A stretch of DNA of 64,000 nt from contig JAHJSM010000002.1 in assembly GCA_018830295.1 (NCBI GenBank), forward strand, positions 14,598 to 78,597. The letters are read 5' to 3'. The position numbers were made by a program, and so were the translations under genes. Below the pieces are notes generated by a model. That model was given only the letters and a program-made list of their open reading frames with translations. It was not told where the DNA came from and did not search any database. Shown in pieces: positions 8,818 to 61,607 of the stretch (its first letter is position 1; each line of letters opens with the position of its first letter). This DNA is from Patescibacteria group bacterium (GTDB taxonomy: Bacteria; Patescibacteriota; Minisyncoccia; Portnoybacterales; UBA2143).

Positions 8818-10617
8818 ATGAACTCAAAGGAAATTAGGCGGAGGTATTTGGAATTTTTTGAGGCGAGGGGGCATCGCGTTATTGGCGGGGCTTCTTTGAT
8901 TCCTGAAAATGATTCTTCCACGCTTTTTATCGGTTCGGGGATGCAGCCGCTTATACCGTATTTGCTTGGCGAAAAACATCCGAGCGGGACGCGGTTGGTT
9001 AATTCGCAGAAATGTTTTCGGGCGGAGGACATGGAGGAGGTGGGGGATAATCGCCACAATACTTTTTTTGAAATGCTTGGTAATTGGTCTTTGGGCGACT
9101 ATTTTAAAGAGGAGCAATTGGGATGGCTTTTTGAATTTTTAGTTGATGAATTAGGGTTTGACCCGTCGCGGATTTATGTTTCGGTTTATGGAGGGAATGA
9201 GGAAATTGGCGTTCCGAAGGATTTGGAGTCGGTTGAGATTTGGAAGAAATTGTTTGAAGGAGAGAGGATTTTCTATTACGGCGACGAGAAAAATTGGTGG
9301 TCGCGTTCGGGCGTTCCAGTTAAGATGCCTGTCGGCGAGCCAGGAGGACCCGATAGCGAATTATTTTACGATTTGGGCGCTCATTTGAAGCGGCATGAAA
9401 ATTCTGTTTGGAAAAATCAGCCCTGCCATATTAATTGCGATTGCGGGCGGTTTATTGAAGTTGGGAATAGTGTTTTTATGGAATATATCAAGACGGAAAA
9501 GGGCTTTGAAAAATTAAAACAAAGAAATGTTGATTTCGGCGGGGGACTGGAAAGAATGGCAATGGTGGCGCAAGGGAAGGATAATGTTTTTGAAACAGAT
9601 TTGTTTGTTAATATTTTGAATAAAATTGAGGAACTTTCGGGGGGCAAAAAATACAGGGATAATATGAAGTCGTTTGAGGTGATTGCCGACCACATTAAAG
9701 CGGCCGTCTTTATTATCGGTGATACGCGAGGCGTTTTACCGTCAAATCTCGGGCAAGGATATGTCGTTAGGCGGTTGATTCGCCGCGCGATTAGGTATGG
9801 TAGATTATTGGGAATTGACGGAGGCGACTGGATGAAAAAATTGGCAGCGGTTGTTTTGGACGACTACAAAGATGTTTATCCTGAATTAGACAAGAAAAGG
9901 GAATTTGTGATTAAAAATATAGTAGAAGAAGAAGAAAAATTCAGCAGGACGATAGAGAGAGGGTTGAAAGAATTTGAAAAAGTGGCGGGGGGCAAAATCA
10001 GCGGAATGGACGCTTTTAATTTGTATCAGAGTTATGGTTTTCCGATTGAAATGACGCGCGAGTTGGCGGAAGAAAAAGGGCTGGAAGTGGATGAAAATGG
10101 ATTTGGCGAGGAACTTAAAAAACACCAAGAACTGTCGCGAACTGCTTCGGCGGGCGAATTCAAAGGCGGGCTGGCGGACGCGGGCGAGGAAACTAAAAAA
10201 CTACACACGGCGGCGCATTTGCTTTTAGCGGCCTTGAGGAAGGTCTTAGGTGAGGGCGTGGAGCAAAAGGGAAGCAATATCACGGCGGAACGATTGCGGT
10301 TTGATTTTTCGTATTCGGATAAAATGACGGACGAGCAGAAAAAAGAAGTTGAGGATTTAGTCAACGAAGCGATTAAAAAAGATTTACCGGTAGTTTGCGA
10401 AGAAATGTCTTTGGAGGAAGCGAAAAAATCTGGCGCGGTCGGCGTTTTCGAATCCAAATATGGAGAAAAAGTTAAGGTTTATAAAATCGGAGATTTCTCA
10501 AAAGAAATTTGCGGAGGTCCGCATATAGAGCGAACAGGCGAATTGGGAGGATTTAAAATAGCAAAAGAGCAAAGTTCTTCGGCTGGCGTTCGGAGAATTA
10601 AGGCAGTTTTAAAATAA
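8818..10617 (+). CDS. alaS: alanyl-tRNA synthetase, compact form lacking the C-terminal C-Ala domain
   Basis: N-terminal RYLEFFEARGH...SLIP.NDSSTLF class II AlaRS signature; editing domain HTAAHLL...CGGPH; only 599 aa. Confidence 0.85.
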   Translation: MNSKEIRRRYLEFFEARGHRVIGGASLIPENDSSTLFIGSGMQPLIPYLLGEKHPSGTRLVNSQKCFRAEDMEEVGDNRHNTFFEMLGNWSLGDYFKEEQLGWLFEFLVDELGFDPSRIYVSVYGGNEEIGVPKDLESVEIWKKLFEGERIFYYGDEKNWWSRSGVPVKMPVGEPGGPDSELFYDLGAHLKRHENSVWKNQPCHINCDCGRFIEVGNSVFMEYIKTEKGFEKLKQRNVDFGGGLERMAMVAQGKDNVFETDLFVNILNKIEELSGGKKYRDNMKSFEVIADHIKAAVFIIGDTRGVLPSNLGQGYVVRRLIRRAIRYGRLLGIDGGDWMKKLAAVVLDDYKDVYPELDKKREFVIKNIVEEEEKFSRTIERGLKEFEKVAGGKISGMDAFNLYQSYGFPIEMTRELAEEKGLEVDENGFGEELKKHQELSRTASAGEFKGGLADAGEETKKLHTAAHLLLAALRKVLGEGVEQKGSNITAERLRFDFSYSDKMTDEQKKEVEDLVNEAIKKDLPVVCEEMSLEEAKKSGAVGVFESKYGEKVKVYKIGDFSKEICGGPHIERTGELGGFKIAKEQSSSAGVRRIKAVLK

Positions 10618-28057: not shown

Positions 28058-28090
28058 GGGGGCAGCCCCCGAGGACGGGGGACTGCCCCC
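28058..28090. repeat. GC-rich paired palindrome GGGGGCAGCCCCC-GAGGAC-GGGGGACTGCCCCC (repeat family copy 6)
   Basis: near-perfect inverted arms after HAD gene stop; additional single arm GGGGACTGTCCCC at 28142-28154 abutting the trpS stop. Confidence 0.75.
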
Positions 28091-28154: not shown

Positions 28155-29138
28155 CTAAATTAGGCCCATTTTTTGTTTTGCTTCTTTGAGGGTTTTTTGG
28201 GCTTTTACTTTTGCTTGTTTGGCGCCTTCTTGGAGGATTTTTTCTAATTTTTTAGGATTTTTTTCTAAGGCGGCTTTCTTTTCTTGGAATGATTTTAGTC
28301 CCAGAATGATTGTTTCAGCCAAGCCCTCTTTGAATTGGGCGTATCCTTTGTTTTTGTATTTTTTCTCAATATCGTCAAAAGATAAATCGGAAAAATGTTT
28401 GTAAATAGTCATAAGGTTGGCGATGGCTGGCCTTTTTAAATCATATTCTATGGTAGTTCCAGAATCCGTGACCGCTTTCTTTATTTTTTGCTCAATAACG
28501 GCGGGGGAGTCAGTTAGGGAGATATAATTGTTTGAATTGGCGGCGCTTTTTGACATCTTCTTTAATGGATTATCAAGTCCCATAATTCTGGCGGTTTCTT
28601 TGTTGATGAGCGGCTGGGGGACGGTGAACGATTTTCCGTAGAGATGGTTAAAGCGTCGCGCCAACGATCGCGCCAGTTCAATGTGCTGTTTTTGGTCTTC
28701 GCCAACAGGAACGGCGTCGGTTTGGTAAAGCAAAATGTCGGCTGCCATGAGGACAGGGTAATCAAAAAGTCCGACATTAACTTTGTTTTTATGCTGTTCG
28801 GATTTGTCCTTGAATTGCGTCATCCATTCTAATTCGGGGATTTTCGTGATTGTGTTTAAAAGCCATGCCAATTCGGAGTGTTCGGAAAGATGGGACTGGA
28901 CGAAAACAACACTTTTTTTATGGTCAATTCCAGCCGCTAAATAGATCGCTGCCATTTCTAAAACGGCTTTTCTTAATTTTTGAGGGTCTTGGGGAACGGT
29001 TATAGCGTGCAAATCAACGACGCAAAAAATAGAATTATATTCGTTTTGGAGTTCAACCCAGTTTTTGATGGCGCCCAGGTAGTTGCCGATATGGGCGATG
29101 CCAGTTGGCTGAACGCCGCTGAAGATGGTTTTTTTCAT
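28155..29138 (-). CDS. trpS: tryptophanyl-tRNA synthetase
   Basis: GVQPTG..HIGNYLGA (HIGH-like) and KMSKS motifs; 327 aa. Confidence 0.85.
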   Translation of the reverse strand: MKKTIFSGVQPTGIAHIGNYLGAIKNWVELQNEYNSIFCVVDLHAITVPQDPQKLRKAVLEMAAIYLAAGIDHKKSVVFVQSHLSEHSELAWLLNTITKIPELEWMTQFKDKSEQHKNKVNVGLFDYPVLMAADILLYQTDAVPVGEDQKQHIELARSLARRFNHLYGKSFTVPQPLINKETARIMGLDNPLKKMSKSAANSNNYISLTDSPAVIEQKIKKAVTDSGTTIEYDLKRPAIANLMTIYKHFSDLSFDDIEKKYKNKGYAQFKEGLAETIILGLKSFQEKKAALEKNPKKLEKILQEGAKQAKVKAQKTLKEAKQKMGLI

Positions 29139-29857
29139 TTTTTTTGAAAGGCCTTGATAATTGGTTTCAGGTCGCCTTCTATGATTTTTTCCAAATTATG
29201 CCAGGATTTATTAATGCGATGGTCGGTGACGCGGTTTTGGGGGAAGTTGTAGGTGCGGATTTTTTCGGCTCGCATCGCGGAACCGATTTGCTCGCGTCGT
29301 TCGGCGCTTTCCTTTGCCATTTCTTCTGATTGCTTTTTCGCCAAAAGGCGAGCCCGCAAAACATTCATTGCTATTTCTTTGTTGTGTTGTTGAGACCTTC
29401 CTTCTTGGCAGTTAACCATAATACCTGTCGGCTTGTGGATAATTCTGACGGCGGATTCGGTTTTATTGACATGCTGTCCGCCTGGTCCCGAGGAACGCAG
29501 AACATCAATCCTTAAATCGCGCGGGTCAATTTTTAATTCTGTTTCGGCGACTTCGGGCATAATAGCGACCGAAGCAGTTGAGGTGTGAATTCTTCCCGAT
29601 TTTTCCGTGGTCGGAATTCGCTGGACGCGATGAACGCCAGCTTCTTGCTTAAGTTTATCATACACATCATCGCCCTTTATTCCAAAAATGATTTCGCGGC
29701 AGCCGCCTGCTTCTTTAATGTGTCTTTCAATTAAATTGGTTTTCCAACCTTGTTTTTCCGCGAAACGGGAATACATCCGAAAAAGATCGGACGCGAAAAA
29801 CGCCGCTTCCTCTCCGCCGGCGCCAGCTCTGATTTCAATGATGATGCCTTTGCTCAT
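29135..29857 (-). CDS. prfA: peptide chain release factor 1, truncated form lacking N-terminal domain 1
   Basis: GGQ motif (SSGPGGQHVNKT); tripeptide PTT at the PxT position in the RF1 domain-2 context RVQRIPTTEKSGRIHTS; 240 aa; immediately downstream of rpmE (L31) with 4-nt overlap. Confidence 0.7.
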   Translation of the reverse strand: MSKGIIIEIRAGAGGEEAAFFASDLFRMYSRFAEKQGWKTNLIERHIKEAGGCREIIFGIKGDDVYDKLKQEAGVHRVQRIPTTEKSGRIHTSTASVAIMPEVAETELKIDPRDLRIDVLRSSGPGGQHVNKTESAVRIIHKPTGIMVNCQEGRSQQHNKEIAMNVLRARLLAKKQSEEMAKESAERREQIGSAMRAEKIRTYNFPQNRVTDHRINKSWHNLEKIIEGDLKPIIKAFQKK

Positions 29858-29860
29858 TTT

Positions 29861-30091
29861 TTATTTTTTGAGTTTGAGTCCTGCTTTCTTATCCTTTTGG
29901 GCCATTCTTTGTTTGAATTTTTCTATTTGGCCTGTTTCAATGACTCGTTCTTTGCCTGTATAGAAAGGATGACAAGCGGAACAGATTTCCACTTCCATTT
30001 CAGGAACAGTTGAGCCAAATTCAAACTTAGCGCCGCAAACGCATTTGACTTTTGCTTTGGGATAATATTTAGGATGTATATCTTTTTTCAT
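29861..30091 (-). CDS. rpmE: 50S ribosomal protein L31
   Basis: [10 protein letters not shown]...[12 protein letters not shown]...[10 protein letters not shown] zinc-ribbon L31 signature. Confidence 0.85.
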
Positions 30092-30228
30092 ATTACGGGT
30101 AATATATCAGATAAAGATGGATTGAGCAAGAGCTGAGGACGGGAGCAAGTGCTTGCCTTAATTTTAAATTATGATATACTTTCCGCAGGCCTCTTATAAA
30201 AAAACTTCAAAAGGGGGTTGTTAAATTT

Positions 30229-30966
30229 ATGAAAAAAAAGATTGTAAAAAAGATTGTTGAGAAAAAAGTTGTTAAGGTGACCGACAAGACGGTCAAAAGC
30301 GCTCTTCCGAGTTTGGAAGATATGCTTGGCGCGGGAGTCCATTTCGGTCATCGGGCGTCCAAGTGGAATCCAAAAATGAAGCCGTATGTTTTTACTACTC
30401 GCAGCAATGTTCACATTATTGATTTAGAAAAGACGGCGGCGAAGTTTGAGAAGGCATTGGAATTTTTGCGCCAAATCAAAAAGCAAAATGGAACGATTAT
30501 TTTCGTCGGAACAAAAATCGCCGCGAAAGATATTGTTAAAAAGACGGCCGAGGAATGCGCGATGCCTTTCGTGACGGAAAGATGGATCGGGGGAACGCTG
30601 ACTAACTTTAAGGTTATTTCAAAACGACTCAAGCATTACCGTGATTTAGAAAATGACCAGAAAACAGGGGAGTTGAAAAAATACACCAAGAAAGAACAGC
30701 ATGATTTCGGAGTTCAATTACAACGGCTTGACCTGCAGTTTGGCGGCATCAAAAATTTAACCAAAATGCCAGACGCGCTTTTGATTATTGACACCCACAA
30801 AGAGCAATTAGCGTTAAAAGAAGCGAGGGCGAAGGGGATTTTGACGGTTGGATTGTGTGACACAGACGCCGATCCAACGCTGGTGGATTATCCAATTCCC
30901 GCGAACGATGACGCGATTTCGTCTTTGAAATTAATTTTAGGCGCGATCGAGAAGGTCTTAAAATAA
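30229..30966 (+). CDS. rpsB: 30S ribosomal protein S2 (with short Lys-rich N-terminal extension)
   Basis: GVHFGHRASKWNPKMKPYVF...NVHIIDLEKT S2 signature. Confidence 0.85.
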   Translation: MKKKIVKKIVEKKVVKVTDKTVKSALPSLEDMLGAGVHFGHRASKWNPKMKPYVFTTRSNVHIIDLEKTAAKFEKALEFLRQIKKQNGTIIFVGTKIAAKDIVKKTAEECAMPFVTERWIGGTLTNFKVISKRLKHYRDLENDQKTGELKKYTKKEQHDFGVQLQRLDLQFGGIKNLTKMPDALLIIDTHKEQLALKEARAKGILTVGLCDTDADPTLVDYPIPANDDAISSLKLILGAIEKVLK

Positions 30967-30970
30967 AACT

Positions 30971-31420
30971 ATGATTTCAATGGAACAAATTAAACAATTG
31001 CGCGAAGAAACCAATGTTTCTGTTATGGAGTGCAAGAACGCCTTAGAAGAGGCGGGCGGCGACATGAAAAAAGCGCTGGAGATTTTGAAAGAAAAAGGCA
31101 AAGCAAAAGCGTTAAAGAAGGCGGGTCGGGAAGCGAAACAAGGTTTAGTTGAAGCGTATATTCACAACAATGGCAAAATCGGCGTTGTTTTGGAGTTAAA
31201 CTGCGAAACAGATTTTGTCGCTAGAAACGAGGACTTTAAAGCGCTGGCGCACGATATTGCGATGCATATCGCGGCGATTGCCCCAAAAGACAAGGAGGAA
31301 CTTTTACAGCAACCCTTTATTAAGGACGAAAAGCAAAAAATTGAGGACTTGATAAATGGCGCGATTGCTAAATTGGGAGAAAATATTAGAATAGGGGAAT
31401 TTTCAAGGTTGGAGATATAA
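30971..31420 (+). CDS. tsf: elongation factor Ts, short (149 aa) form
   Basis: N-terminal UBA-like IKQLREETNVSVMECKNALEEAGGDMKKALEILKEKG; directly downstream of rpsB as in the rpsB-tsf operon. Confidence 0.75.
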   Translation: MISMEQIKQLREETNVSVMECKNALEEAGGDMKKALEILKEKGKAKALKKAGREAKQGLVEAYIHNNGKIGVVLELNCETDFVARNEDFKALAHDIAMHIAAIAPKDKEELLQQPFIKDEKQKIEDLINGAIAKLGENIRIGEFSRLEI

Positions 31421-34493: not shown

Positions 34494-34569
34494 GGGCGCG
34501 TCCGTTAATTGGTTAAACGGCTGGTCTCCAAAACCGGTCCTGCAGGTTCGAGTCCTGCCGCGCCTGCCA
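34494..34569 (+). tRNA. tRNA-Trp (anticodon CCA), CCA encoded
   Basis: acceptor GGGCGCG/CGCGCCT (G1.U72), D CGTT/AACG, anticodon stem CTGGT/ACCGG with loop CTCCAAA, T-arm GCAGG-TTCGAGT-CCTGC. Confidence 0.8.
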
Positions 34570-36084
34570 ATGGGTCAGGTTAGAACCTTTAGTTTTATTA
34601 AGTTCTGCCACGAAATTAAAGGGTTCTTTAAGGTCAAAATTCAGTAACCCATCTCTTAGTATAAAGTTTTTGCCAACAGCCCTTAGAAGGGCTTTTTTGT
34701 CTTCAATACTGCCCTCCTCAAACACTTTATAAGCATGGTTGGTTTGGATAATTAGGTTTTCCGCATAATCATGCCACGCTTGATTGGTTTTATCATGGGC
34801 TTCCAATTTTTCTTTGGCTTCCATTTTGGCGTCTAAAATTTCTCTTTTTTTCTTGCCGTACTCTTCTTTTTCAATTAAGCCGTCAGTATAAAGATTAAGC
34901 AATCTATCTAGTCTGTCCTCGCATTTGTTAAATATATTTTGCCAATACTTAATACTATTTAAATATAATTCTTTTTCGTTATTGTGGCTTTTTTTGACAG
35001 CCGTCATTAAAAGTTCTTTAACCATGTCGCCAATAGTGATTTCCTTTATTTTCAACCTTAATTGTTTTTCAATTTCTTCTTCTCTTAAATAGGGTTGAGC
35101 ACATTTTCCTCTTTTTTGGGTGCAGTGGTAATAAACATGTCCTTTTTTCTCTTCGGCTGTAATTGAGCATCCGCAATAACTACATTTGATGATTCCTCTG
35201 AAGGCGAATTGCCAGCGTTGAGAAATGGGGCGGCTATTCTGGCGGAGGACTTCTTGGATTCGATCAAAGATTACTTTACTGATAAGCGGTTCATGATTTC
35301 CTTCGTATTGTTCGTTTTTCATAACCATCATTCCGTAGTAAAATGGATTTCGAAGTAATCGGGCTAAAACACTTTTACTAACTTTTTTATTTTTTAATTT
35401 ACCCCTTAAGTCAAGCTGGTAAGATTTTTCTGCCATTGTTTCCAAATTGAAGTTTCCGGTGGCATATTCCTCAAAAATTTTCTTAATTATCGAACCTTGG
35501 ATAGGATCAATTTCTATCCGTTTTAATACTTTGTTTTCCTTTTCTAAAAGCCGTTGTTTGTGTTTGTCATAACTTTTGCCCGCGATAACGCCTTTTCCGT
35601 CCATATTAATATATCCTATCGGCGCTAAACCTGGCCATTCCTTTTTAGTAGTTAGCTTATGCCTAAAACCTCTTTTAGTGTTAAAACTTAAATCATCAAC
35701 ATATTTTGTAGCCATGCCGAATTCAATTTGCATTAGAAATTTATCATTAACGCCTTCGTAAGTTTTTTCAGCAGTGACAATTTTTGAAATAGTGCCCTTG
35801 CCTAGCCAATAAATAATTCTGCCTCCATCAAGTTCATTTCTAGCTAGTCGGTCTAATTTCCAAGCGATGATCCCGCAATTTCCAGTTTCTATTTTTTCCA
35901 TCATTTCATTAAAAACAGGTCTGCCAATATCTTTGGCTGACCTGGATTCTTTGAATATCTCTACAATGTTTAATCCTTCCTTTTGCGCTAACTGAGTTAA
36001 TTCCCTAATTTGAGAATCAATTGAGAGTATTTGACGATCTTCCTCTTCTGAAGACTTGCGAACATAAAGAAAATATTGGTTCAT
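34513..36084 (-). CDS. large serine recombinase (phage-type serine integrase)
   Basis: N-terminal resolvase catalytic domain YVRKSSEEEDRQILSIDSQ (Ser nucleophile), recombinase domain, zinc ribbon CSYCGCSITAEEKKGHVYYHC, C-terminal coiled coil; last 18 codons (WQARQDSNLQDRFWRPAV) are encoded on the antisense strand of tRNA-Trp nt 34513-34569. Confidence 0.8.
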   Translation of the reverse strand: MNQYFLYVRKSSEEEDRQILSIDSQIRELTQLAQKEGLNIVEIFKESRSAKDIGRPVFNEMMEKIETGNCGIIAWKLDRLARNELDGGRIIYWLGKGTISKIVTAEKTYEGVNDKFLMQIEFGMATKYVDDLSFNTKRGFRHKLTTKKEWPGLAPIGYINMDGKGVIAGKSYDKHKQRLLEKENKVLKRIEIDPIQGSIIKKIFEEYATGNFNLETMAEKSYQLDLRGKLKNKKVSKSVLARLLRNPFYYGMMVMKNEQYEGNHEPLISKVIFDRIQEVLRQNSRPISQRWQFAFRGIIKCSYCGCSITAEEKKGHVYYHCTQKRGKCAQPYLREEEIEKQLRLKIKEITIGDMVKELLMTAVKKSHNNEKELYLNSIKYWQNIFNKCEDRLDRLLNLYTDGLIEKEEYGKKKREILDAKMEAKEKLEAHDKTNQAWHDYAENLIIQTNHAYKVFEEGSIEDKKALLRAVGKNFILRDGLLNFDLKEPFNFVAELNKTKGSNLTHWQARQDSNLQDRFWRPAV

Positions 36085-36184
36085 GTTTGTATGTTAATAG
36101 TCATAAAGTCATACTTAAGGCAAAAAGTAGGGGATTGTTCTTTGTTTGTTTATACTCAGCGGTAACGGAGTTCTTAATTTTTAT

Positions 36185-36670
36185 TTACCAAATATTTAAG
36201 ATTTTCCAATTATTTTTGTAAGGTTTGCCAAATTCTAAATCATCTTTATTATTTCTTTGCGGGTCAAAACAACGAACGGAATTGTCTTTGCGAGGACGAC
36301 CGCCACGGCCCGGGGTTCTTAGCCATTTGCGATGTTTTTGATAAAGATATTTACAAAATGTTTTTTGAGGGAATATATAATATTCTGGTAGTTTGTTTGG
36401 CCCCAAAAGGTCTACTAAAACAACATAATGATTAATTAGTCCTGCATCTTCTTCGGTGCTTTTTGCTAAGTTCCATCCTTGATTGTTCTCAACCGACATG
36501 GTTTTGGTTTGGATTGAAATTGATTTACCATTGTCGGGGTTAGTAACCAATAAATCAACTTTAGGCGTATTTTTCAAAGTAATTGTGGCGATCAAACCCC
36601 TTTGAGATAATTCCGCAGCCACAAAATATTCTCCCGCTATTCCAACAATATTTGGGCGTTTTTTAATCAT
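36185..36670 (-). CDS. hypothetical protein (possible PD-(D/E)xK-like fold)
   Basis: VDLLVTNPDNGKSISIQTK loosely resembles a D...(E/Q)xK nuclease motif; otherwise no match. Confidence 0.3.
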   Translation of the reverse strand: MIKKRPNIVGIAGEYFVAAELSQRGLIATITLKNTPKVDLLVTNPDNGKSISIQTKTMSVENNQGWNLAKSTEEDAGLINHYVVLVDLLGPNKLPEYYIFPQKTFCKYLYQKHRKWLRTPGRGGRPRKDNSVRCFDPQRNNKDDLEFGKPYKNNWKILNIW

Positions 36671-36675
36671 AGTTT

Positions 36676-36930
36676 TTATTTAAGTAATTTTTTAATATTT
36701 TTGAGTTGAAATTTTTGAGCTTCTTTTTGAAGTTCTTTTATTTTCTCGATAACTTTCAAGGATTTTTCATGGTCATAAAGCCGATGTTTTCCCGGCGTAT
36801 GTCCGGATGGCTTCAACAGCCCCTTTTGAGTATAAAATTTAATTTCCGAGACGGTAGACCCGACTTCTTTGGCTAATTGTCCAATTTTAATAAGTTTTTT
36901 GTTCATAGATTGGCGTGCACCATGGTGCAC
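36676..36930 (-). CDS. MerR-type HTH protein (candidate excisionase/recombination directionality factor)
   Basis: MNKKLIKIGQLAKEVGSTVSEIKFYTQKGLL helix-turn-helix; real start probably the Met at 36906. Confidence 0.45.
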   Translation of the reverse strand: MHHGARQSMNKKLIKIGQLAKEVGSTVSEIKFYTQKGLLKPSGHTPGKHRLYDHEKSLKVIEKIKELQKEAQKFQLKNIKKLLK

Positions 36931-37011
36931 ATTAGAATTAGGAATTACTAATTACTATTTTAGTTGAAAAAATAAAAAGGTCAAGGTTTTAGTACGGTGC
37001 GAATAATAAGG

Positions 37012-37788
37012 CTATTGAGACAACGAATCGCATTTTTGTTCTAATAATAAATATTGCTCTTTGATAGAAATAGCCTCACTGACTTTTTCCGAAGCCTCCT
37101 CTAATCTGGATTGTTGATCTTCTATTTGGCTTTTCCTTGAAACATAGAGTTTTTCAAGTTCTAAATGCCTATAAAGTTCCCCTTTACATTCAGCTGTTAG
37201 ATTTGTATAGCAGCCACTTGGGATATTTTCAAACTCGCTAGATGAAATATTAGAGAATGGAATTGGCATATTACTCCCTCGCTGACTGCGTAAAATTTCT
37301 AATTCAGTTTTGGTAGCTTCAAATTGTTCAAAATCTGGATCCCAATAATGAGTAGGGTCAATCACGGTTATATCGTCATTTTCGATTCTTTGAATTTCAG
37401 AGGTAGCCTGGTCTAAATTTTTCTGCCAGCGAGCGACTTCATTAAGTTGGTGGGATATTTCATCAAGTATGCTTTGATAACCCGAATAACCCCTATCTAA
37501 TAGATAATTTCTCGCTTCATTACATGATTGTTCCTTCAAAATAAGATTTGCTTGCTGATTAATAATATTTTGTAATTCTGAGACAGTCTGCTCTTGTTCG
37601 GTTTGTTTAGTTTCTACAACTTCCACTCGTCCAATCAAAATATCCATCTGCTCGGCTATAATTTGGACCGCCTCAGCTGGGGTCTTGCCCTGAATCAAGC
37701 TAACCACGAAAGAGCCGCCCAGCGTGACAGTAGGGAAGACTATAAGTCCGACAATGATACCAATTAAGATTTTTTGATATGTTTTCAT
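37012..37788 (-). CDS. membrane-anchored coiled-coil protein, unknown function
   Basis: N-terminal TM then Gln/Glu-rich coiled coil. Confidence 0.3.
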   Translation of the reverse strand: MKTYQKILIGIIVGLIVFPTVTLGGSFVVSLIQGKTPAEAVQIIAEQMDILIGRVEVVETKQTEQEQTVSELQNIINQQANLILKEQSCNEARNYLLDRGYSGYQSILDEISHQLNEVARWQKNLDQATSEIQRIENDDITVIDPTHYWDPDFEQFEATKTELEILRSQRGSNMPIPFSNISSSEFENIPSGCYTNLTAECKGELYRHLELEKLYVSRKSQIEDQQSRLEEASEKVSEAISIKEQYLLLEQKCDSLSQ

Positions 37789-37799
37789 GAATAACTAAA

Positions 37800-38063
37800 T
37801 CAAACATTAAATTTTGTTCTACAATAAGGACAAATTTCAGCTTTTAATGAAATTCTTTTTTGGCATTTTGGGCAAACCTTCCCTCCGCTTTTACAAAATA
37901 TATAATAGAGAAAAGCAAAAAATCCAAATATTAAGCCCATAAAGAAAGCAACACCAGCGCTCCTTTCTTTTCTTTGAGCTATAAAAAAGCATATCATGCC
38001 CCAAATAACGCCAAAGATGATTATGCCTATAAAGAAAGATTCAAATATATAACTTAAAAACAT
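37800..38063 (-). CDS. small membrane protein with C-terminal zinc ribbon
   Basis: two TM helices then CPKCQKR...CPYCRTKF. Confidence 0.35.
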   Translation of the reverse strand: MFLSYIFESFFIGIIIFGVIWGMICFFIAQRKERSAGVAFFMGLIFGFFAFLYYIFCKSGGKVCPKCQKRISLKAEICPYCRTKFNV

Positions 38064-38081
38064 AATTATTTTAGTTCTTTT

Positions 38082-38741
38082 TTATCTTTCTTCAAGTTTA
38101 ATAACTACCGTTTCAAAATCAGAAGAAAGCCATGAATCATCAAGATAGACCAACTCTAAAGTATCCAGATTTATATTGTTGGGCACTTCATAGGTGATAT
38201 ATCCTCTCATTTTTCTTGTTGGCGCTAATTCAATACTTTCAAATTTTGGTTCTTTTTCGTAAATAGATCTCTCATAAATATGTCCTTGGTTATCATAAAG
38301 CTCAAAATCATATGTACTGTAATATTTAGGATTATCTGTGATATTGGTAAGTTCTATATCAATTGCAATATATTTATTACCTAGTGATGGCTGACGCCAA
38401 GAGTCAGATTCTTGATGTTTAGATATGCCGTATGCGATTATTTTACAGTTTTTTAACCATGCTTCTTTTTTAAGATATACTGTAATAATCTGAGATTTTT
38501 CAGGAGCAAGAGATTGAGTTGTTTCTTTCTTTTTGCTTCCATCTCCATCAATAAAAATAATAATAACAATGACAAAGACGATAAGCCCTAAAACAGCCAA
38601 ACAGCCATAACCTTGCTTTTCTTGCTCTTTTTTCTTAATCTCTTTTTCTGCTTTAACCCTCGCCTCTACTCGCATTTTTTCTTCCATTTCTATTTCTTCT
38701 TGTTTTGATAAATTTTCGCTTTTCTTTTTTTCTTCGTTCAT
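38082..38741 (-). CDS. membrane-anchored DUF4352-like protein
   Basis: charged N-terminus, TM, C-terminal block resembling DUF4352 (GNKYIAIDIELTNITDNPKYYSTYDFELYDNQGHIYE). Confidence 0.35.
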   Translation of the reverse strand: MNEEKKKSENLSKQEEIEMEEKMRVEARVKAEKEIKKKEQEKQGYGCLAVLGLIVFVIVIIIFIDGDGSKKKETTQSLAPEKSQIITVYLKKEAWLKNCKIIAYGISKHQESDSWRQPSLGNKYIAIDIELTNITDNPKYYSTYDFELYDNQGHIYERSIYEKEPKFESIELAPTRKMRGYITYEVPNNINLDTLELVYLDDSWLSSDFETVVIKLEER

Positions 38742-38931
38742 ATTTTTTTATTTATATTTTAATTATGTCCAAAAACACAAAGCCCCCCACGAGTGATAGT
38801 CCTTTCGGACCATCCAATAGCCTTTCGACCATTGACCCAATCACGAGTACTCAATGAGGAGCTTAATATCGTGATTGGGGTTTTATGCCATATCCCTATG
38901 AGACGAGACTTAGGCAAATTAAATTGTCTGA

Positions 38932-39870
38932 TTATAGATTATCTTTTTTATTCTTTTTAGTCAACCGCTTGTCGTGGAATTTGTGATAGGCTTCTTTTAG
39001 AAAATTGTTTGAGACACTTAAGTATCTTTCGGTTGTGGAAATTGAGCTATGTCCAAGTAATTTTTGGACAAAGTAAAGATTACAGCCGTTGTTGAGCAAA
39101 TCCACGGCGAAAGACCTCCTCATTGTATGAGGCGTGACTTTTTTGACAATCTTGGCTAATTTGCTATATTTGGTTATCAGTAATTGAACGCCCCGAGGTG
39201 ATAGCCGGGCTATTATATCCCTATCATGACGGACAAATAGGGCAGGACAATTATCTTTTCTTGCCTTAAGGTAATTTTCAAGACCATCAATGGCATTTCC
39301 GGACAGAAAAACCAGTCTAATCTTGCCTCCCTTGCCTATGATTGCGAGCTCTTTTTGTTTAAAATTAATTTGTTCCTTATTTAAATTAGTTAGTTCGAAA
39401 AGCCGGAGCCCAGTTGAAAATAAAAGTTCTAAAATTGCTTTATCTCGCAAATTGATTATTGGCTTGGCTTGGTATCTAAGTGGAGCTTTTAGTAATTTCC
39501 TCAATTCGGACCTATCTAAAAAAGTTACTTCTCTGTCACTAATTTTAGGCAATTCAATGATTTGAGGCGTAATAGCTATTTTATAATCTTGTTTTTGAAG
39601 ATGGGCAATAAAACTGCGGATTATTATTAAATAATGCGATTGGGTGGCTAAACTCAAATTTTGGCTTGATTTGCCTTTTAATTTGCTCAACCACAATTGA
39701 TAATTAATTAAATTTCTTTTAGTAATTTGGTCAATTGGAATATTGCCAAGTTGCTTTTTAAAAAGATCTAAGCCACGGCTATAACTAATTAGCGTGTGAT
39801 GACTTTTGCCTCTAATTTTTAGATATTCCAAAAAATTTTTAATGGATTGTGTTAATTTTATTGTTTCCAT
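38932..39870 (-). CDS. tyrosine recombinase (XerC/XerD-like integrase family)
   Basis: C-terminal catalytic block TPHTMRRSFAVDLLNNGCNLYFVQKLLGHSSISTTERYLSV (R...HxxR...Y). Confidence 0.8.
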   Translation of the reverse strand: METIKLTQSIKNFLEYLKIRGKSHHTLISYSRGLDLFKKQLGNIPIDQITKRNLINYQLWLSKLKGKSSQNLSLATQSHYLIIIRSFIAHLQKQDYKIAITPQIIELPKISDREVTFLDRSELRKLLKAPLRYQAKPIINLRDKAILELLFSTGLRLFELTNLNKEQINFKQKELAIIGKGGKIRLVFLSGNAIDGLENYLKARKDNCPALFVRHDRDIIARLSPRGVQLLITKYSKLAKIVKKVTPHTMRRSFAVDLLNNGCNLYFVQKLLGHSSISTTERYLSVSNNFLKEAYHKFHDKRLTKKNKKDNL

Positions 39871-39920
39871 AATTTAGGAGCGCGTATCGCGCGCGCGTTA
39901 TAAAACGAACTTATTGGCAA

Positions 39921-40352
39921 TTAATCCGTTATTAACCCTTTTTCCTTAAAAGAAAAGTAATCGTTCTTTAAATTAATTATTATGTGGTCGAACAATTCGA
40001 TTCCCAGTATTTTGCCAGCTTCCGCTATCCTTTTTGTTGTCTTCAAGTCGTCCTCTGACGGCTCAATTTCTCCGCTTGGGTGATTATGTAAAATGATCAA
40101 GCTAGCAGATGATGCCGTTATGGCAGGTCTAAAGGTTTCTCTTGGGTGGATTAAGCCAGCATTCAATACTCCCAGACCTATTAATTCAATCCGTGTTATG
40201 GCATTTCTGGCGTTCAAATATACTGCCCAAAAATGCTCCTTCATTCTGTCGTCTTTTTCTTCTGACTTAAGGACTTCTGTCAAAATCTTAGCTATCTTTT
40301 TAGGATCGCTAATTTTTGTTTTTCTTATTTTATCGCTTATTTTTATTCTCAT
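39921..40352 (-). CDS. RadC-like JAB/MPN domain protein
   Basis: LIILHNHPSGEIEPSEDDLKTTKRI is the JAMM-like HNHPSG motif of RadC (UPF0758). Confidence 0.75.
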   Translation of the reverse strand: MRIKISDKIRKTKISDPKKIAKILTEVLKSEEKDDRMKEHFWAVYLNARNAITRIELIGLGVLNAGLIHPRETFRPAITASSASLIILHNHPSGEIEPSEDDLKTTKRIAEAGKILGIELFDHIIINLKNDYFSFKEKGLITD

Positions 40353-40379
40353 GTTTTGGCTCCTTTCTAAAATTTAAAT

Positions 40380-42330
40380 TATATTTTGGACGCAAAACAA
40401 AAACCCCGGCCGTACAAAATCGACCGGGGCCCTCAACCTCGAAAGGCTGAGACCCAACCTTAAAAAGGTTGAGATGGTTCTATCATACCAAAACCAAAGA
40501 GCGTTTGGCAAATAGAAAAGACCTTAAGTTTTGTAACGGCGCGAACAACGCGCCCAAAAGGCAAATATTCAAGTAAAGATTTTTTAAGTTTCTACCTCCA
40601 TTTTAAGCGATTTTCGGATGAGAGTCAATAGGTCCGAATGGGGATAAACACGCACTGGTAAACGCTTTATAGCGTTTTTGAGGATTGAAGTTGGGTTCAC
40701 ATAATCGGCATTATGAGATTAGCTATAATGTTGGTTTTGAGGTGTTTTGAGCCAGAAAAAAAAGACCGAAGCATAAGAGGACACTTAGCGTTCAAAGGCA
40801 TCTGCGACACGATCTCCAAAAACGCCAGGCAAGTACGTAGTTTATACCGTTTGAGCGATGAACGGGGATATATCTTCAGAATATTAAACTATCCCATTTT
40901 GGCGTTCTACGCTAGTCAGTCTGGGATCGTATGAATTAGGTCATCTTGGATCGAAAAACCCCTTATATGGCTGTTTTTATATCAAAAATCGCCTTCCTCA
41001 GCTACTTTTCTTCTGGGTTGGACAACCGATAGAGTTGTTCGACCAGCGTTGATCGATGTTTTTTGCCATAATCGCCCTTATCAATGAGTCGGTTGAACCA
41101 TTGAGCAATAGCCGGACGACCAAAGTTTCTGTCTTTGACGGTTTCGGCAAAACAAGTAAAACTAGACCAATATGGGTTTTGGTTTGATATTGTATTGAAT
41201 ACTCGATAAATAGATCGCATAGTTAATTTTATATGGGTTTGTTTGATATTGAAGGGCTAACCGAGGGGCTAAGGCACTATCTGTGGTCAGGCTCCTTGCT
41301 GATCAACCTGGGCATTCATCTACCATCTTTTACCATTTTCCCTAGTTAGTTGGCTAACCTCTCTTCATCTTCCCTTACACACCAACCCCCGTTTAGAATA
41401 GCAACGGCTTCCAAAGCCTGTCTATTAGCCTGGAGTACCGCAATCCCTAGGAATCCATTATTTCGTGGTAGGGTCTTGATTGACTGTAGTTGGAATATGA
41501 TGTCCAGCTGTTAAACTTTCATCCATCACCCACCAACCCGAATTCTTTATCGCCCAATCTTTTTACGGTTTAACGATAAAGCAATGTAGACCATAACGCT
41601 CTACTGCGCGGAAATTACGATGCTACCCCCTTATCGTCAGTAGTGTCCGTATTCCTTTATCCCAGCTGTCTTTTATTAAGACAGTAGCTAACAGGTAGCT
41701 ATACTTAGTGGCACTAATGGGCGGCATCCTGGGTTCGCCTTACCACACCCCATTAGGTTTTTAAGAGTTTTATTAGAGCTCTATTGTAATTAAACAATTT
41801 TTTACCAACAACATCGTCAAGGCGAACCTGCTATTGAATCTAAACGATGTTGCTAGTAAAAAACTGATTATTAACAATCTGGCTAAACTTTAAATCTTCA
41901 TATTCTTTTTTTTGTGTTCTAACTGGCTGTTTTCTGTTGATTCTAAATTTGTCTGATTTTTATTTTTAGCGAACTGGACAAAGACATTGGCTATGTCTTG
42001 GATATTTTTTGCAATTTCAATAATCTCCTTTTCTGAGGGGTCAAGTCCATATTTTTCAAGAATTTTTTTGTAATCTGTATTATCGAAGTCCATGATTGTG
42101 AAAATAAAAAAGCCGCCAACGCTATTCAGGCTGGTGGTTTAGAAATAAAAAAAGACTACTAATCAAAACCCAGCACTGAATTGTGCCAGTCCGATGGTAG
42201 TCTTGTGCGCCTCAGTGGACTTAATAAGAGGAGCGACTTGAGGAATATTTAGTTTTATATCTTATTGAGATATTACTTTAGATTACCCAAAGGGTCAAAT
42301 ATTTGTTTTTTTGGCTTTTCAAACGAGCGG
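40380..42330. other. about 2-kb ORF-poor region inside the island with locally elevated GC (about 47% vs about 38% flanks) and multiple hairpins; candidate structured non-coding RNA(s) or decayed genes
   Basis: only three 60-75 aa ORFs in 1.95 kb; hairpins at 40397-40430 and 40432-40484; 21-nt direct repeat at 41171 and 41231; no rRNA, tRNA or group II domain V signature recognised. Confidence 0.3.
41171..41251. repeat. two copies of direct repeat TATGGGTTT(T)GGTTTGATATTG spaced 60 nt apart
   Basis: copies at 41171-41193 and 41231-41251 flank the start of the 72-aa ORF 41002-41220. Confidence 0.5.
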
Positions 42331-42339
42331 ATTTTTGGT

Positions 42340-42361
42340 ATAATCAAAACATAATACTTCA
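42340..42361 (+). promoter_or_regulatory. promoter-like TGGTATAATCAAAACATAATA, 21-nt identical to the rlmN upstream element
   Basis: exact copy of 1718-1738; contains a TATAAT -10 hexamer; 40 nt upstream of the 42402 start. Confidence 0.4.
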
Positions 42362-42401
42362 GTTTAGCATCAATAAAAAGAGGACTTGATTAAATAATTT
42401 T

Positions 42402-43190
42402 ATGGCAAAAGAAATAACAACTAAATATTTTAAGCAATACAGACAAAAATTAGGTTTTGCCAATCAAATGGATGTTAAAAAGTTTTTTGGAGCCAAGGAT
42501 GTTCTCCCGACCGTAGATTTTAGCTACATAAAGTTATTAAACAAGAGACTTTACGAAATAGTTGATTTAATAAACGCTGTCGTTGCTGATAATATAAAGG
42601 TTGATGATCTGCTTTCGTTTAAAAAAGAAGAGATAGACCATTCTTTTGAGATAATGAAAAAAAACAAAATTTTGCCGAGATTAAATAATCTTGGCAGAAG
42701 ACCCGAACAAGTTTATTTTTCTTGGATGAGGGGCTATGTAATTTCCAGTTTTTTCTTAAAGGCATTGGGCATAGTCTTTGAGGTAGATACTTCAAAAATA
42801 GACCTAATTGGAGATGATGATTTGAGAAATATTGAAACTTTCAGAAGGACTCCAAAAGCGGATTTGGAAATTAAATTAAACGGTAAAGAAAAGGTTAGAA
42901 TAGAAATACAATCTGGTTTTACCGGTATAAATGATATAAAACAACACAAAGTGTTAGAATCAAAACGCATTTTTAGAGATTTGGGAATTCATACATTGGC
43001 AATTCATTTTGATTTATACAACGGACAAGTGGCATTTGTAAAACTAGACGAGATAGAAGACAGAAATATCAATTGGATTACAAGGCAGCAAATGGAAGGG
43101 CAAACGGTTTTTAACATAAATCAGAATTATTTCGTGTGGAAAATTACGCAGAAGCCAATCAAATATAAAAAAATCAAATTTGATTTATGA
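42402..43190 (+). CDS. candidate type II restriction endonuclease (PD-(D/E)xK-like), partner of the adjacent C5-methyltransferase
   Basis: IGDDD...PKADLEIKLNGKEKVRIEIQ fits D-x(n)-ExK; stop overlaps the MTase start (ATGA) implying co-translation. Confidence 0.35.
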   Translation: MAKEITTKYFKQYRQKLGFANQMDVKKFFGAKDVLPTVDFSYIKLLNKRLYEIVDLINAVVADNIKVDDLLSFKKEEIDHSFEIMKKNKILPRLNNLGRRPEQVYFSWMRGYVISSFFLKALGIVFEVDTSKIDLIGDDDLRNIETFRRTPKADLEIKLNGKEKVRIEIQSGFTGINDIKQHKVLESKRIFRDLGIHTLAIHFDLYNGQVAFVKLDEIEDRNINWITRQQMEGQTVFNINQNYFVWKITQKPIKYKKIKFDL

Positions 43191-44314
43191 GTAAAAAAAT
43201 CAAAATAATAGATTTGTTTTCTGGAGTTGGGGGGTTGAGTTATGGCTTTGCTCGCGATGACAATTTTGAGATAGTAGCAGCAAATGAGATTTTGGAAAAT
43301 ATGGCTAAGGCCTATTTGTTAAATCATCCAGGAGTAAAAGTTTATGTTGACGACATAAAGAATTTTAACGCGAAAATTATTAAGGGTGATCTGCGAATTA
43401 AAACAGGGAAAATTGATATAATTGTTGGCGGACCGCCTTGTCAGGCCTATTCAACAGTTGGCAAAAGATTAATTAACGATTCGCGAGGAAAACTTTTTCA
43501 AGAATATTATCGGGTTTTGAAGGAATTCAATCCGAAATTTTTTCTTTTTGAAAATGTAAAAGGATTGCTATCTATGCAAGGAGGAGAATTATTGAAAACA
43601 ATTATGTCGCTTTTTGAATCGTTGGGATACGAGACGCAATATAAGGTTTTAAACGCGGCTGACTACGGCGCGCCGCAAATAAGAGAAAGAGTCATAATTA
43701 TAGGGTCAAAATTAAAAACTAAATTTCAGTATCCAAAACCCACACATTATGATTCGAAAGAAAAACAAAGTTTGTTTAATGATAATTTGCTTCCTTATTT
43801 AACTCTTGAGGACGCCATAAGTGATTTGCCATTTATTAAAGCGGGAGAGGAAATTTTTGAATATATCTCGGAGCCAAAAAACGATTTTCAGAAAATTATG
43901 AGAGAAAATGTTCAGGAAAAGTTGATGGATCATAACGCTCCAAAAAACAACGAAAGATTAATTAAGATAATGGAATTGTTACCGGATGGCGGCACACCTG
44001 AAGATTTGCCGAAAGAGTTGCGACCAACATCGGGATTTAAAAATACTTACTGTCGTTTGTGGTGGAAACGACCATCAACTACAATTACGAGAAATTTAGG
44101 CACACCATCATCTTCCAGGTGTATTCATCCGAAAGCGCCAAGGCCGTTAACCACAAGAGAGGGGGCAAGAATTCAATGTTTTCCAGATGATTATCAATTT
44201 TATGGTTCAAGGGGCGACAGGAACTTACAAATAGGAAATGCCGTTCCGACATTTCTTTCTGTCGCGTTGGCAAAATCGATTTTAAACAATTTTCAAACAG
44301 AAAAATTGATTTAA
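43187..44314 (+). CDS. DNA (cytosine-5)-methyltransferase
   Basis: motif I DLFSGVGG, motif IV GGPPCQAYS, motif VI ENV, motif X QIGNAVP. Confidence 0.85.
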   Translation: MSKKIKIIDLFSGVGGLSYGFARDDNFEIVAANEILENMAKAYLLNHPGVKVYVDDIKNFNAKIIKGDLRIKTGKIDIIVGGPPCQAYSTVGKRLINDSRGKLFQEYYRVLKEFNPKFFLFENVKGLLSMQGGELLKTIMSLFESLGYETQYKVLNAADYGAPQIRERVIIIGSKLKTKFQYPKPTHYDSKEKQSLFNDNLLPYLTLEDAISDLPFIKAGEEIFEYISEPKNDFQKIMRENVQEKLMDHNAPKNNERLIKIMELLPDGGTPEDLPKELRPTSGFKNTYCRLWWKRPSTTITRNLGTPSSSRCIHPKAPRPLTTREGARIQCFPDDYQFYGSRGDRNLQIGNAVPTFLSVALAKSILNNFQTEKLI

Positions 44315-44408
44315 TTTACAGAAAAAGGTTTCTAGCATCTTTTTATGCAGATGCGCCTGGCGTTTCGTTGGACGATCTAATGAAATAATCAATGAATATA
44401 TTTTATTT

Positions 44409-47400
44409 ATGGCAACTTATTATCAAAACAGATATAGATATCGAGGAGGATATAATAAAAGAGCTTCGGCTAATATTAGAACAAAAGAAAACAAAGCGCC
44501 GATAGTCCATACTGATCCAACATCTTCTCGTTGGCAGAATCTTCTTAAATATTATGGAGCCTGTATTTCGGTTGAGAATTCTGGAGAAATTACGCTTTTT
44601 TCTTTTAAAGAAGGGACAGAATTTTTACAAGTGCCAGTAATGGATAAAGAGTGGGTTGCGTCTGGGAAAGAGCGATTAGAGTTTGAAGGGCAAAATGAAA
44701 AAATACAAACATTAATCAACGGGCCACGGTGGAGTCGGAGCCCGCTTTCTTTTTTTTACGGTTTTCCATGCCACATCAAACATATTGAACAATCAAGGCG
44801 CGGCTGGTCAGGTCAAATTATTCAGCCGATTTTGATTTTCGGCGTTGATCTAATACGGACGGAAACTGGGTACGCGTTTGTATTACAATCAGATAGACCA
44901 AGAATAAATTCAGCTTTTCTTACTGATAAAAGTTTATTAACCAGTGTTGAGGAAAGAAAACAAGTAGCTGAAGCGGTTTTGGGGGCATGGGACGAAGAAA
45001 AAAGCAGAGAGCAGAACCTTAAAACCATTCTTAGCGCATTTGCCGAATTACTACCGCAAGAGGTTTTATTTTCAAAAGATATTTTACGCGACAAAACGAC
45101 TGAATTGAAAGCAGAAAACAGTATTTTGCCTCTTGGAATAATTTTTCGAAGCGTGGATTCAAAATATACATACGGATTAGAACAGGAGTTGAGCGAACTG
45201 CGGGGCGTTGCCACTCCGAATGATGTTTGGCGCGTCATTTTGGACCGAAATACAGAAGATGGAAAAAATAACAAGAATGACGAGTTTTTGGAAATAACTG
45301 GACTGAACGATGAACAGCGCGGAGCGGTCAAAAGTGCTTTTAATAATATAGTTAGCGTAATCACAGGGCCGCCAGGAACTGGAAAATCGCAAATTGTCCT
45401 CAATATTATTGCTAATGCCTTATTACATAACGAGAGCGTCTTGTTCGGAAGTAAAAATCATAAGGCAGTTGATGTTGTTATTGAACGGTTGTTGCGACTA
45501 CAGTCAGAACCAGTCATTTTAAAATATGGGCAAAAAGAACGAGAGGTTGAGTTTGCAGAAGCGCTTTTATCTGCGATTGAGCGCGCATCAAGTTATGACA
45601 GTCAAATATTAGAACGCGAAATCGGAGAATATAAGAAAAAATTAGAATTAATCAGAGAGGAAGAAGAAGAGGCGAAAAAATCTCTTTTTCGTATTCTTGA
45701 CCGGAGAAATCGCATCAGCCATCTTGATGCCGTTCTTGAATTAATTAAAACGGAGTTGCCTTCACCAATTTCTAAAAATTTAAAGCAGTATAAAAAGATT
45801 GAAAGAAATTATAACTTTAATAGATTACTTGGTCTTTTGGGTCGTTTGATAAAAGAAATTGATGGGGACTTGAGTTTTGTTTCGCGCATCCTTTCTTTTT
45901 TTGGTTTAACCATAGAGAAGCGGGTATTGAAAGCTTCAAAGTCTTTGCTTATTGTTATGCCTATTCAGGGCATTTCTTTTCCGATCAAATCAGAACATAA
46001 TTGCAGGGAGATTTTGACTGTTGCGCGTTTACTGAAGCGATGGATGGATAATCAATCAGAACTTCTAAGCGTTGTGCGCGAAAATGAAAATGAACAACGA
46101 ATAGAAATTTTACGAGAGAGAATAACAAAAAGTAAAGAGCGCGCAATTGATGTCAGTATCAGATATGTTGATGCGCTGATGAAGCGTCGCTTGAAATCAT
46201 TAGGAAGTAAGGAGCGACGCGATATTGCTGATTATGTAAGTATTGTTCGGCGACTAGAAGGCGATGTAATTGGCGGCGATTTTGCCAAAAGATTATACAA
46301 TGAAAGAAAGCGGATGTTTAAGAGCGTGGTTAGAGCATTTCCGGCAATGGCTGTAACAAACCTGTCTGTACGCCATGCGCTTCCATTAAGCGCTGATGTT
46401 GTTGATATAGTGGTTATTGACGAAGCGTCGCAATGCGATATTGCATCAGCACTTCCGCTCCTGTATAGAGCAAAACGGGCTGTAATTATTGGAGATCCGA
46501 ATCAGCTTACCCATATTTCTCTTTTACATCGCGCAGACGATCAGCAATTGCAGCAACAGATGGGGTTAACCTCCACGGATGACCAGCGTTTTCTTTACAG
46601 CATCAACTCTCTTTTTGAACTTGCAAGAAGTACTGTTGGCACAGGAGCAAAGTTTACGCACCTGCTTGAACATTATCGTAGTCGCGCAGAGATTATTGGA
46701 TTTTCAAATAAAAGATTTTACGGCAATAGGTTGAGCGTGTGGACGGATTATAGGCGATTGCGCGGAACAGGACATCCAGACGCTGTTGTTTGGCATGATG
46801 TTGTTGGAGAAGTTATTCGTCCATCTGTCGGAAGCGCTTATAATCTTGATGAAGCAAAAGAAATTGTTGTGTTGATTGAGGAGATTATTAAAAGAATTGC
46901 GGCGCATGGCGATGATTATTCTGTATCGCTTGGCGTCGTGACTCCATTCAGGGAACAAGCGAATAAGATTAGAGATTTAATAGGGCAAAAAATAGATGCA
47001 GCTCAGCTACGAAAGTTGGATTTTATAGTCGAAACTGCTCATAAATATCAAGGCGATGAGAAAGATATAATGATTTTCTCCCCCGTAGTATCCCGTAAAA
47101 TTCAAAAACGCTCACTCGGATTTTTAGGTAGTACGGTTAATTTATTTAATGTAGCGATTACTCGCGCGCGGGCAGAATTACATATTGTCGGTGATAGAGT
47201 TGCTTGTGCTCAATCGGGCATTCTACATCTTTCGAAGTTTGTGCAATATGTCGATGAATTAGAGCCAGAAAATAAAGACCAAAAAGGTGGAAAATTTGAG
47301 TCGCCATGGGAGGAAGTTTTGTACGATGCGCTCGCTCGGAAAGGGATTAAGACAATCCCTCAATATCCTCTCCATCAATATCGTCTTGATCTTGCTATCG

Positions 47401-61556: not shown

Positions 61557-61607
61557 GGCTTGAAATTAAATTTCAAGTTTTAGTTTGTAATTTCTATAAT
61601 AAAAAAA

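Follow-up and report, generated by a model that had tools for sequence, protein, structure and literature searches.

Can a housekeeping class I release factor do without its entire N-terminal domain? This question is raised by a stretch of 64,000 nucleotides from a Patescibacteria group bacterium (GenBank assembly GCA_018830295.1, contig JAHJSM010000002.1; hereafter the window), in which prfA, the gene for release factor 1 (RF1), encodes a protein of 240 amino acids made up of domains 2, 3 and 4 only. We conclude, with a probability of roughly 85%, that this protein is the housekeeping RF1 of a Patescibacteria (Parcubacteria-group) bacterium and that it has lost its N-terminal helical domain 1 in evolution.

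Domain 1 is the least conserved domain of release factors, a flexible and loosely attached module that is dispensable for codon recognition and peptidyl-tRNA hydrolysis but required for promoting nucleotide exchange on RF3 (PMC1586002). On the ribosome it spans the two subunits at the outer edge of the A site (PMC6742477). RF3 itself is missing from Thermus, Thermotoga, Chlamydiales and spirochaetes, and RF1 and RF2 can carry termination through without it (PMC6742477).

The 240-residue protein is an RF1 that lacks domain 1

The prfA open reading frame (ORF; 29135..29857, minus strand) begins with ATG and ends with TGA. We found that the C-terminal half of the Pfam PCRF profile (positions 100-194 of 194) matched residues 3-97 with 153 bits, and that the complete RF-1 domain matched residues 105-214 with 145 bits. 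The NCBIfam prfA models entered the alignment at model position 104/112 and ran onward from there, and RF1 chains from the PDB aligned without large gaps from residue 88 in T. maritima, 106 in T. thermophilus and 111 in E. coli. The original prediction, a reading of this DNA made from its letters, had claimed a 240-residue RF1 without N-terminal domain 1; Pfam, NCBIfam and PDB alignments that begin between RF1 residues 88 and 112 bear this out. Upstream, an in-frame stop codon belonging to rpmE lies two codons 5' of the prfA ATG and thus leaves no room for domain 1; this ATG is the first possible start after that stop.

The original prediction had also proposed a comparison with profiles for RF1, RF2, RF-H and ArfB. 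When the class I factor models of NCBIfam were ranked against the protein, prfA was the best by far (391 bits, E ~4e-117), followed by prfB (258), prfH (108) and arfB (50), the last two below their cut-offs. Nor is the protein an RF2: it carries PTT in place of SPF, and its prfB score of 258 compares with a cut-off of 370 (TIGR00020).

These scores also bear on the possibility that the protein is a specialised rescue or accessory paralogue, with a normal full-length RF1 encoded elsewhere. Natural factors of the class I type that lack domain 1 are known, namely RF-H and ArfB (PMC1586002), and the genome was searched only in the window and its flank. However, RF-H (prfH) has a divergent codon-recognition region and always an rtcB-like gene upstream (PMC1586002), whereas the short RF1 scores only 107.6 against the RF-H model TIGR03072 (cut-off 166.65), has the canonical PxT and other RF1 decoding residues, and has rpmE as its upstream gene. 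ArfB, ICT1 and C12orf65 share the GGQ domain with the short RF1 but lack domains 2 and 4 and carry a C-terminal tail; in the short RF1, domains 2 and 4 are full, and only residues 105-141 match ArfB (49.6 bits, cut-off 100). The gene also occupies the orthologous prfA locus and belongs to a graded series with full-length orthologues, as described below, and genomes of 0.6-0.75 Mb seldom retain duplicates. We therefore consider a paralogue very improbable. Set against the features of RF1s, the protein lacks domain 1 and the equivalog score, and has the Pfam domains, best profile, decoding residues, GGQ motif and locus. Judged by its sequence, it is an RF1 orthologue with a deleted domain 1, and not a factor of the RF-H or ArfB type.

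Decoding residues, catalytic motif and fold are canonical

The PxT 'anticodon' tripeptide, P82-T83-T84 (codons CCG ACC ACG; 29606..29614, minus strand), corresponds to P184-T186 of T. thermophilus RF1. The catalytic GGQ motif, G126-G127-Q128 (codons GGC GGA CAG; 29474..29482, minus strand), is invariant in the alignment. The claim that PTT occupies the PxT position, with GGQ 44 residues further on, thus holds at residues 82-84 and 126-128. With an offset of +102 between the 240-residue protein and T. thermophilus numbering, G14 and E17 correspond to G116 and E119 of helix alpha-5, Q79 to Q181, I90-H91-T92 to I192-H193-T194, and GGQ to residues 228-230. We take these residues, from RF1-70S structures, to be the readers of U1, A2 and the purine at position 3, together with the catalytic motif. 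In an alignment of 44 short homologues, G14, E17, Q79, P82, T84, H91, T92 and GGQ were all invariant, and residue 90 (the I192 equivalent) was I or V.

We considered whether the middle residue of PTT might alter codon specificity. Short relatives have T, E, K, A, S, I, N, V or M at this position with no evident constraint; because full-length relatives show the same freedom, PTT carries no special meaning, and altered specificity was ruled out.

The AlphaFold model of the protein (pLDDT 81) matched ribosome-bound T. thermophilus RF1 with a TM score of 0.93 and a root-mean-square deviation of 2.0 Å (Foldseek). Compact RF1 crystal forms gave a TM score of about 0.6, a difference from which nothing follows about conformation, since the predictor's choice carries no inference. 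Over domains 2-4, the protein is 52-53% identical to canonical RF1 (TIGR00019; T. thermophilus, T. maritima, E. coli; Foldseek), with which it shares the PxT motif, the alpha-5 G/E pair, the Q181/T194-type residues, GGQ, the rpmE-prfA locus and the fold. Unlike canonical RF1, it lacks the domain 1 of ~100-110 residues, falls under the equivalog cut-offs and has no adjacent prmC.

The short gene occupies the housekeeping prfA locus

The gene for ribosomal protein L31, rpmE (29861..30091, minus strand; 76 amino acids, Pfam Ribosomal_L31 E 2e-27), lies directly upstream of prfA. We found the same arrangement in most of 86 RF1-centred loci from at least six phyla, including Chloroflexota, Victivallales/Lentisphaerae, Firmicutes, Actinomycetota and Patescibacteria. 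From the end of rpmE to the start of domain 2, the distance was 38-122 nucleotides (nt) in the short forms, compared with 464-488 nt in full-length Patescibacteria genes at the same locus. This difference in spacing at one locus indicates that the short gene is the positional orthologue of housekeeping prfA. The proposal that rpmE-prfA synteny marks a housekeeping RF1 is therefore well founded: the locus is conserved across phyla, and both the RF1 profile and the decoding residues are canonical.

Downstream of prfA lies trpS (28155..29138, minus strand), which encodes a tryptophanyl-tRNA synthetase of 327 amino acids (Pfam tRNA-synt_1b E 3e-79); loci L001-L009 have the same order. The sequence suggests that rpmE, prfA and trpS are likely a transcription unit, with rpmE as its first gene. 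Its likely end is a strong hairpin 3' of trpS (28058..28090, minus strand; 13 bp, 11 of them G-C). A promoter-like site 5' of rpmE (30171..30200, minus strand) was recognised by consensus only, with 9 of 12 hexamer matches, a number not above shuffle expectation. The divergent pair rpsB (245 amino acids) and tsf (149 amino acids; together 30229..31420, plus strand) neighbours prfA at all shortened-RF1 loci and in some full-length relatives.

The junctions in this unit are tight. The original prediction placed the prfA start 4 nt inside the rpmE stop, which does not hold: rpmE and prfA are separated by a 3-nt gap and lie in one frame (TAA-AAA-ATG, 29855-29863), and the 4-nt overlap is found at the other end of prfA, where its TGA stop overlaps the trpS ATG (ATGA, 29135-29138). 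On sister contigs of the same species (L003-L005), rpmE encodes a 69-residue L31 and its stop overlaps the prfA start out of frame (ATGA). Since the window has TAA-AAA-ATG where these contigs have the ATGA overlap, the rpmE/prfA junction is polymorphic in the population. The shared frame in the window had suggested a read-through fusion of L31 with RF1, a candidate that we rejected given the out-of-frame overlap on the sister contigs. No Shine-Dalgarno-like sequence was found before the prfA ATG. Translation of prfA would probably be coupled to that of rpmE by termination and reinitiation, and trpS may in turn be coupled to prfA through the ATGA overlap.

Shortened RF1 is a trait of a Patescibacteria clade

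Is the truncation a peculiarity of this gene? Assemblies of different samples from NCBI, JGI, ENA and Logan contain the identical 240-residue protein, on 19 contigs in all; the longest, which carries MBU1289975.1, has 744,622 bp, and the protein has four NCBI accessions. A 244-residue RF1 is encoded in OZ246412.1. Among the best 120 database matches (70-100% identical), about 110 have 234-251 amino acids and ten have 284-292; where named, they belong to Portnoybacteria, the Parcubacteria group or Patescibacteria. In the ten longer forms, ~45 residues at the N-terminus correspond to the domain-1 helices a1-a2. In GTDB species genomes of Patescibacteria, RF1 lengths were 234-253, then 269, 295, 304 and 309, and then 344-360 amino acids, the last group being the full-length RF1 of Falkowbacteria and others.

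These counts bear on whether the short gene could be a pseudogene, a 5'-truncated gene call or an assembly artefact. We did find that, in a library of representatives at 50% identity, many N-terminally short RF1 entries are contig-edge fragments; the N-terminally short, C-terminally extended ones are mostly such fragments, some of them running into prmC. Searches of this library were dominated by full-length RF1 and were not used to count short forms. The gene studied here, however, lies inside a 64-kb window behind a complete upstream gene, starts at the first possible ATG after an in-frame stop and is identical on 19 contigs; moreover, it shares 70-91% identity with its homologues, among which the catalytic and decoding residues do not vary. 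An artefact is thus extremely unlikely. Two further proteins, P0242 (477 amino acids) and P0243 (481 amino acids), are each matched by the short RF1 in two separate stretches, and may be tandem RF1 fusions or assembly artefacts.

In a neighbour-joining tree built on domains 2-4, without support values, all forms of 234-309 amino acids fell into one clade, apart from full-length Patescibacteria RF1s; this clade includes Portnoybacteria, Staskawiczbacteria and Paceibacterota. Within it, forms that bear remnants of domain 1 are interspersed among fully truncated ones. By alignment, L051 and the P0075 group (P0075, P0098 and P0108) keep helices a1-a2, L010 and L011 keep a3-a4, and the remaining short forms have a bare N-terminus or a short unrelated tail. 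Because different branches keep different remnants, domain 1 appears to have eroded repeatedly; we read this as selection on domain 1 having relaxed at the root of the clade, after which its branches eroded the domain independently. The original prediction treated the truncation as a peculiarity of a single gene. The truncation is real, but this scope is too narrow: by sequence comparison, the short RF1 is a clade-wide Patescibacteria trait.

No separate domain 1 and no second RF1 in the searched DNA

A split gene, in which domain 1 is made as a separate small protein that joins the short RF1 in trans, would explain the same ORF. The flexible, loosely attached nature of domain 1 (PMC1586002) would suit such an arrangement, and the search for one in this genome was confined to the window. 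We built a hidden Markov model (HMM) of domain 1 from 15 full-length RF1s; it recovered positive controls at 1e-33 and 5e-31 and scored the remnants in the intermediate forms at about 1e-5. In six-frame translations of the 64-kb window it found no match at E<10. The best hit in the short-form loci had E = 0.15, and across ~200 kb of short- and intermediate-form loci nothing emerged beyond the in-gene remnants. In addition, remnants that differ between branches fit decay, not fission. We therefore regard a split gene as very improbable and the deletion of domain 1 as the better explanation. A tblastn search of the window for a second class I factor was likewise negative.

Stop-codon use and the search for RF2

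UAG is read by RF1 and UGA by RF2. The stop-codon survey proposed in the original prediction, run on the window and on ten short-RF1 loci, showed that all three stops are in use. Among the 60 window ORFs of at least 80 amino acids, 41 end in TAA, 11 in TAG and 8 in TGA; the 150 ORFs of the ten loci end in TAA (95), TAG (31, ~20%) and TGA (24, ~16%). TGA is a true stop, as the PCMT and BacA proteins extend to their Pfam profile ends and terminate there at TGA, and TGA also closes prfA. The window's single tRNA-Trp carries the anticodon CCA. From this use of TAG and TGA in the clade it follows that RF1 is needed and that an RF2 must exist.

In related Patescibacteria, RF2 is normal. We scanned viral and metagenome contigs with an alignment of RF2-specific patterns (HRLVRxSPF / RRHTSFAS). 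Among at least 80 metagenome RF2 genes, all had an open frame of 98 codons or more 5' of domain 2 wherever the contig reached far enough. The only Patescibacteria RF2 among the metagenome matches listed, at L193 (protein P0121), has 365 amino acids and a canonical +1 frameshift site, GGAGG..CTT TGA C (L193:3668-3740). Its best 120 relatives, of 328-416 amino acids, keep domain 1 and come from Falkowbacteria-type lineages, in which RF1 is also full-length. The Falkowbacteria-type prfB sits in the order rplM-rpsI-prfB-comEC (L223; L225, 8001-9098; L227, 18914-20476). The scan also returned 34 viral contigs with RF2-type proteins (IMG/VR loci L091-L142), most of them full-length; a few viral RF2-type fragments, such as those of L105-L108, cover domain 2 only.

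Several observations weigh against our assignment. First, the protein narrowly misses the RF1 equivalog cut-offs (391.2 against 400 for NF001859; 390.9 against 423.25 for TIGR00019), a shortfall that is expected with ~105 residues gone; the score under these curated cut-offs also accounts for its NCBI name, 'PCRF domain-containing protein [Patescibacteria group bacterium]'. Second, the RF1s of Thermus and Thermotoga keep domain 1 although these bacteria lack RF3 (PDB alignments; PMC6742477), so that the loss of RF3 is not by itself enough to account for the erosion. Third, our searches reached the 64-kb window and ~7 kb of flank; a second full-length prfA or a separately encoded domain 1 elsewhere in the genome is unlikely. 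Fourth, the RF2 of the clade was not found: tblastn of the window and the 86 RF1-centred loci returned none, as did the ~7 kb of added window flank. Finally, when the rplM-rpsI-prfB-comEC synteny was followed in Portnoybacteria, which have the short RF1, with the AlaRS of the window as anchor, the slot after rpsI held a PEGA-domain gene and then a murA-like gene, not prfB. No RF2 was found there within 21.8 kb. The Portnoybacteria prfB has thus been relocated or, much less likely, lost.

Could the short RF1 then be the sole class I factor, reading all three stops after a loss of RF2? The absence of RF2 from every sampled locus of the clade, and of prfB from its usual position in Portnoybacteria, would fit this idea. 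Yet the loci sampled make up only about 3-10% of any one genome, and the decoding residues are those of canonical RF1, the same as in full-length relatives; furthermore, TGA is a true stop, which normally implies RF2, and related Patescibacteria have a normal RF2. We consider a sole factor highly unlikely, and retain the reading of a housekeeping RF1 that works beside an RF2.

Proposed termination without domain 1

The closest precedent for the short RF1 was made in the laboratory, by truncating E. coli RF1. Engineered E. coli RF1 and RF2 without the N-terminal domain have the same architecture of domains 2-4 (PMC1586002, citing Mora et al. 2003). As summarised there, the laboratory truncation releases peptide in a codon-specific manner in vitro, works in vivo and sustains growth, but is unable to stimulate RF3. 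Unlike the laboratory truncation, the short RF1, known here from sequence, is natural, is fixed in a large clade and is presumably the sole reader of UAG. The full-text literature searched yielded no account of a housekeeping RF1 that naturally lacks domain 1; subscription journals lay outside this coverage, and the form may be noted there. It is unmentioned in a paper on ribosomes of the candidate phyla radiation (CPR; PMC9297842) and in a prfB survey (PMC12421855). The known mechanism of termination is not overturned by this protein.

By the conserved residues and the use of TAG, the short RF1 would bind the A site at UAA and UAG, open like canonical RF1 and hydrolyse peptidyl-tRNA. It would act without the domain-1 bridge to the L11 stalk region and without possible stimulation by RF3, and its release from the ribosome would probably occur through spontaneous subunit rotation. 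UGA codons would be read by a separate RF2.

Domain 1 may not be the only part of the termination machinery to have changed. We scored prmC adjacency over loci L001-L030, L032, L035, L036 and L058. Of the 15 full-length Patescibacteria loci, 13 have prmC as the gene immediately 3' of prfA, and L021 and L025 do not. It adjoined prfA at none of the short or intermediate loci, where trpS or other genes took its place. With E. coli and Patescibacteria queries, no prmC was found in the 64-kb window or the short-form loci; in the short-form clade it may have been relocated or lost. L11 was full-length in one short-form genome (L017). A tentative and rather unlikely extension of our reading is that the clade has shed the whole accessory layer of termination. 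It would then work with a bare three-domain RF1 (perhaps also RF2), without the L11-stalk bridge, without RF3 and possibly without PrmC methylation, prmC having left the locus as domain 1 began to erode. Termination and recycling would depend on spontaneous ribosome dynamics alone, and the repeated erosion in separate branches would be the trace of a partner or function of domain 1 that disappeared at the root of the clade.

Other features of the window

Two further translation proteins encoded in the window are short. EF-Ts (tsf, 30971-31420) has 149 amino acids, and E. coli EF-Ts about 283. AlaRS (alaS, 8818-10617) has 599, compared with 610-675 in relatives, with a catalytic domain that covers 436 of 552 profile positions and a tRNA_SAD domain. 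Both fit the general protein shortening reported for CPR bacteria (PMC9297842). An L10 leader RNA (RF00557; 60934-61045, plus strand; 46.2 bits against 44) precedes rplJ-rplL (61038-62039); neither rplK nor rplA adjoins this pair, and the gene upstream is of the DJ-1/PfpI family. The L7/L12 protein has 143 amino acids, with a Lys/Glu-rich N-terminal extension.

A probable integrated mobile element spans about 34494-47606, beside the tRNA-Trp(CCA) gene (34494-34569); its GC content is 0.33-0.37, and the GC skew flips there. It carries genes for a large serine recombinase (34513-36084), a MerR-like protein, a tyrosine integrase (38932-39870), RadC (39921-40352), a C5 DNA methylase (43187-44314) and a 1065-residue SF1 helicase fused to a REase_MTES_1575/DUF559 nuclease domain (44409-47606). 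Two LOOT RNAs (Rfam RF03000, gathering score 46.4) lie in or beside this low-GC block, at 38795-38916 (minus strand, 73.9 bits) and 47816-47941 (plus strand, 67.6 bits). Further along, a gene at 48017-53836 (plus strand) encodes a secreted protein of 1939 amino acids that combines a subtilase (Peptidase_S8) domain with seven Ig-like surface repeats, and is followed by a gene for a CAP-domain protein (53912-54880).

Significance

The short RF1 is a natural counterpart of a truncation hitherto known only as a laboratory construct. For genome surveys it is an annotation pitfall: misled by a score under the equivalog thresholds and by the label 'PCRF domain-containing protein', an automated survey may count RF1 as absent and wrongly suspect reassignment of UAG. 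For structural and kinetic work, it offers a naturally optimised minimal RF1. Bacteria that lack RF3, such as Thermus and Thermotoga, keep domain 1, which makes its RF3-independent role a puzzle. A clade in which domain 1 has been eroded repeatedly, beside sister lineages that keep it, provides a comparative system, in which one can ask what changed with the loss of domain 1: the L11 stalk, rRNA, PrmC, RF3 or growth rate.

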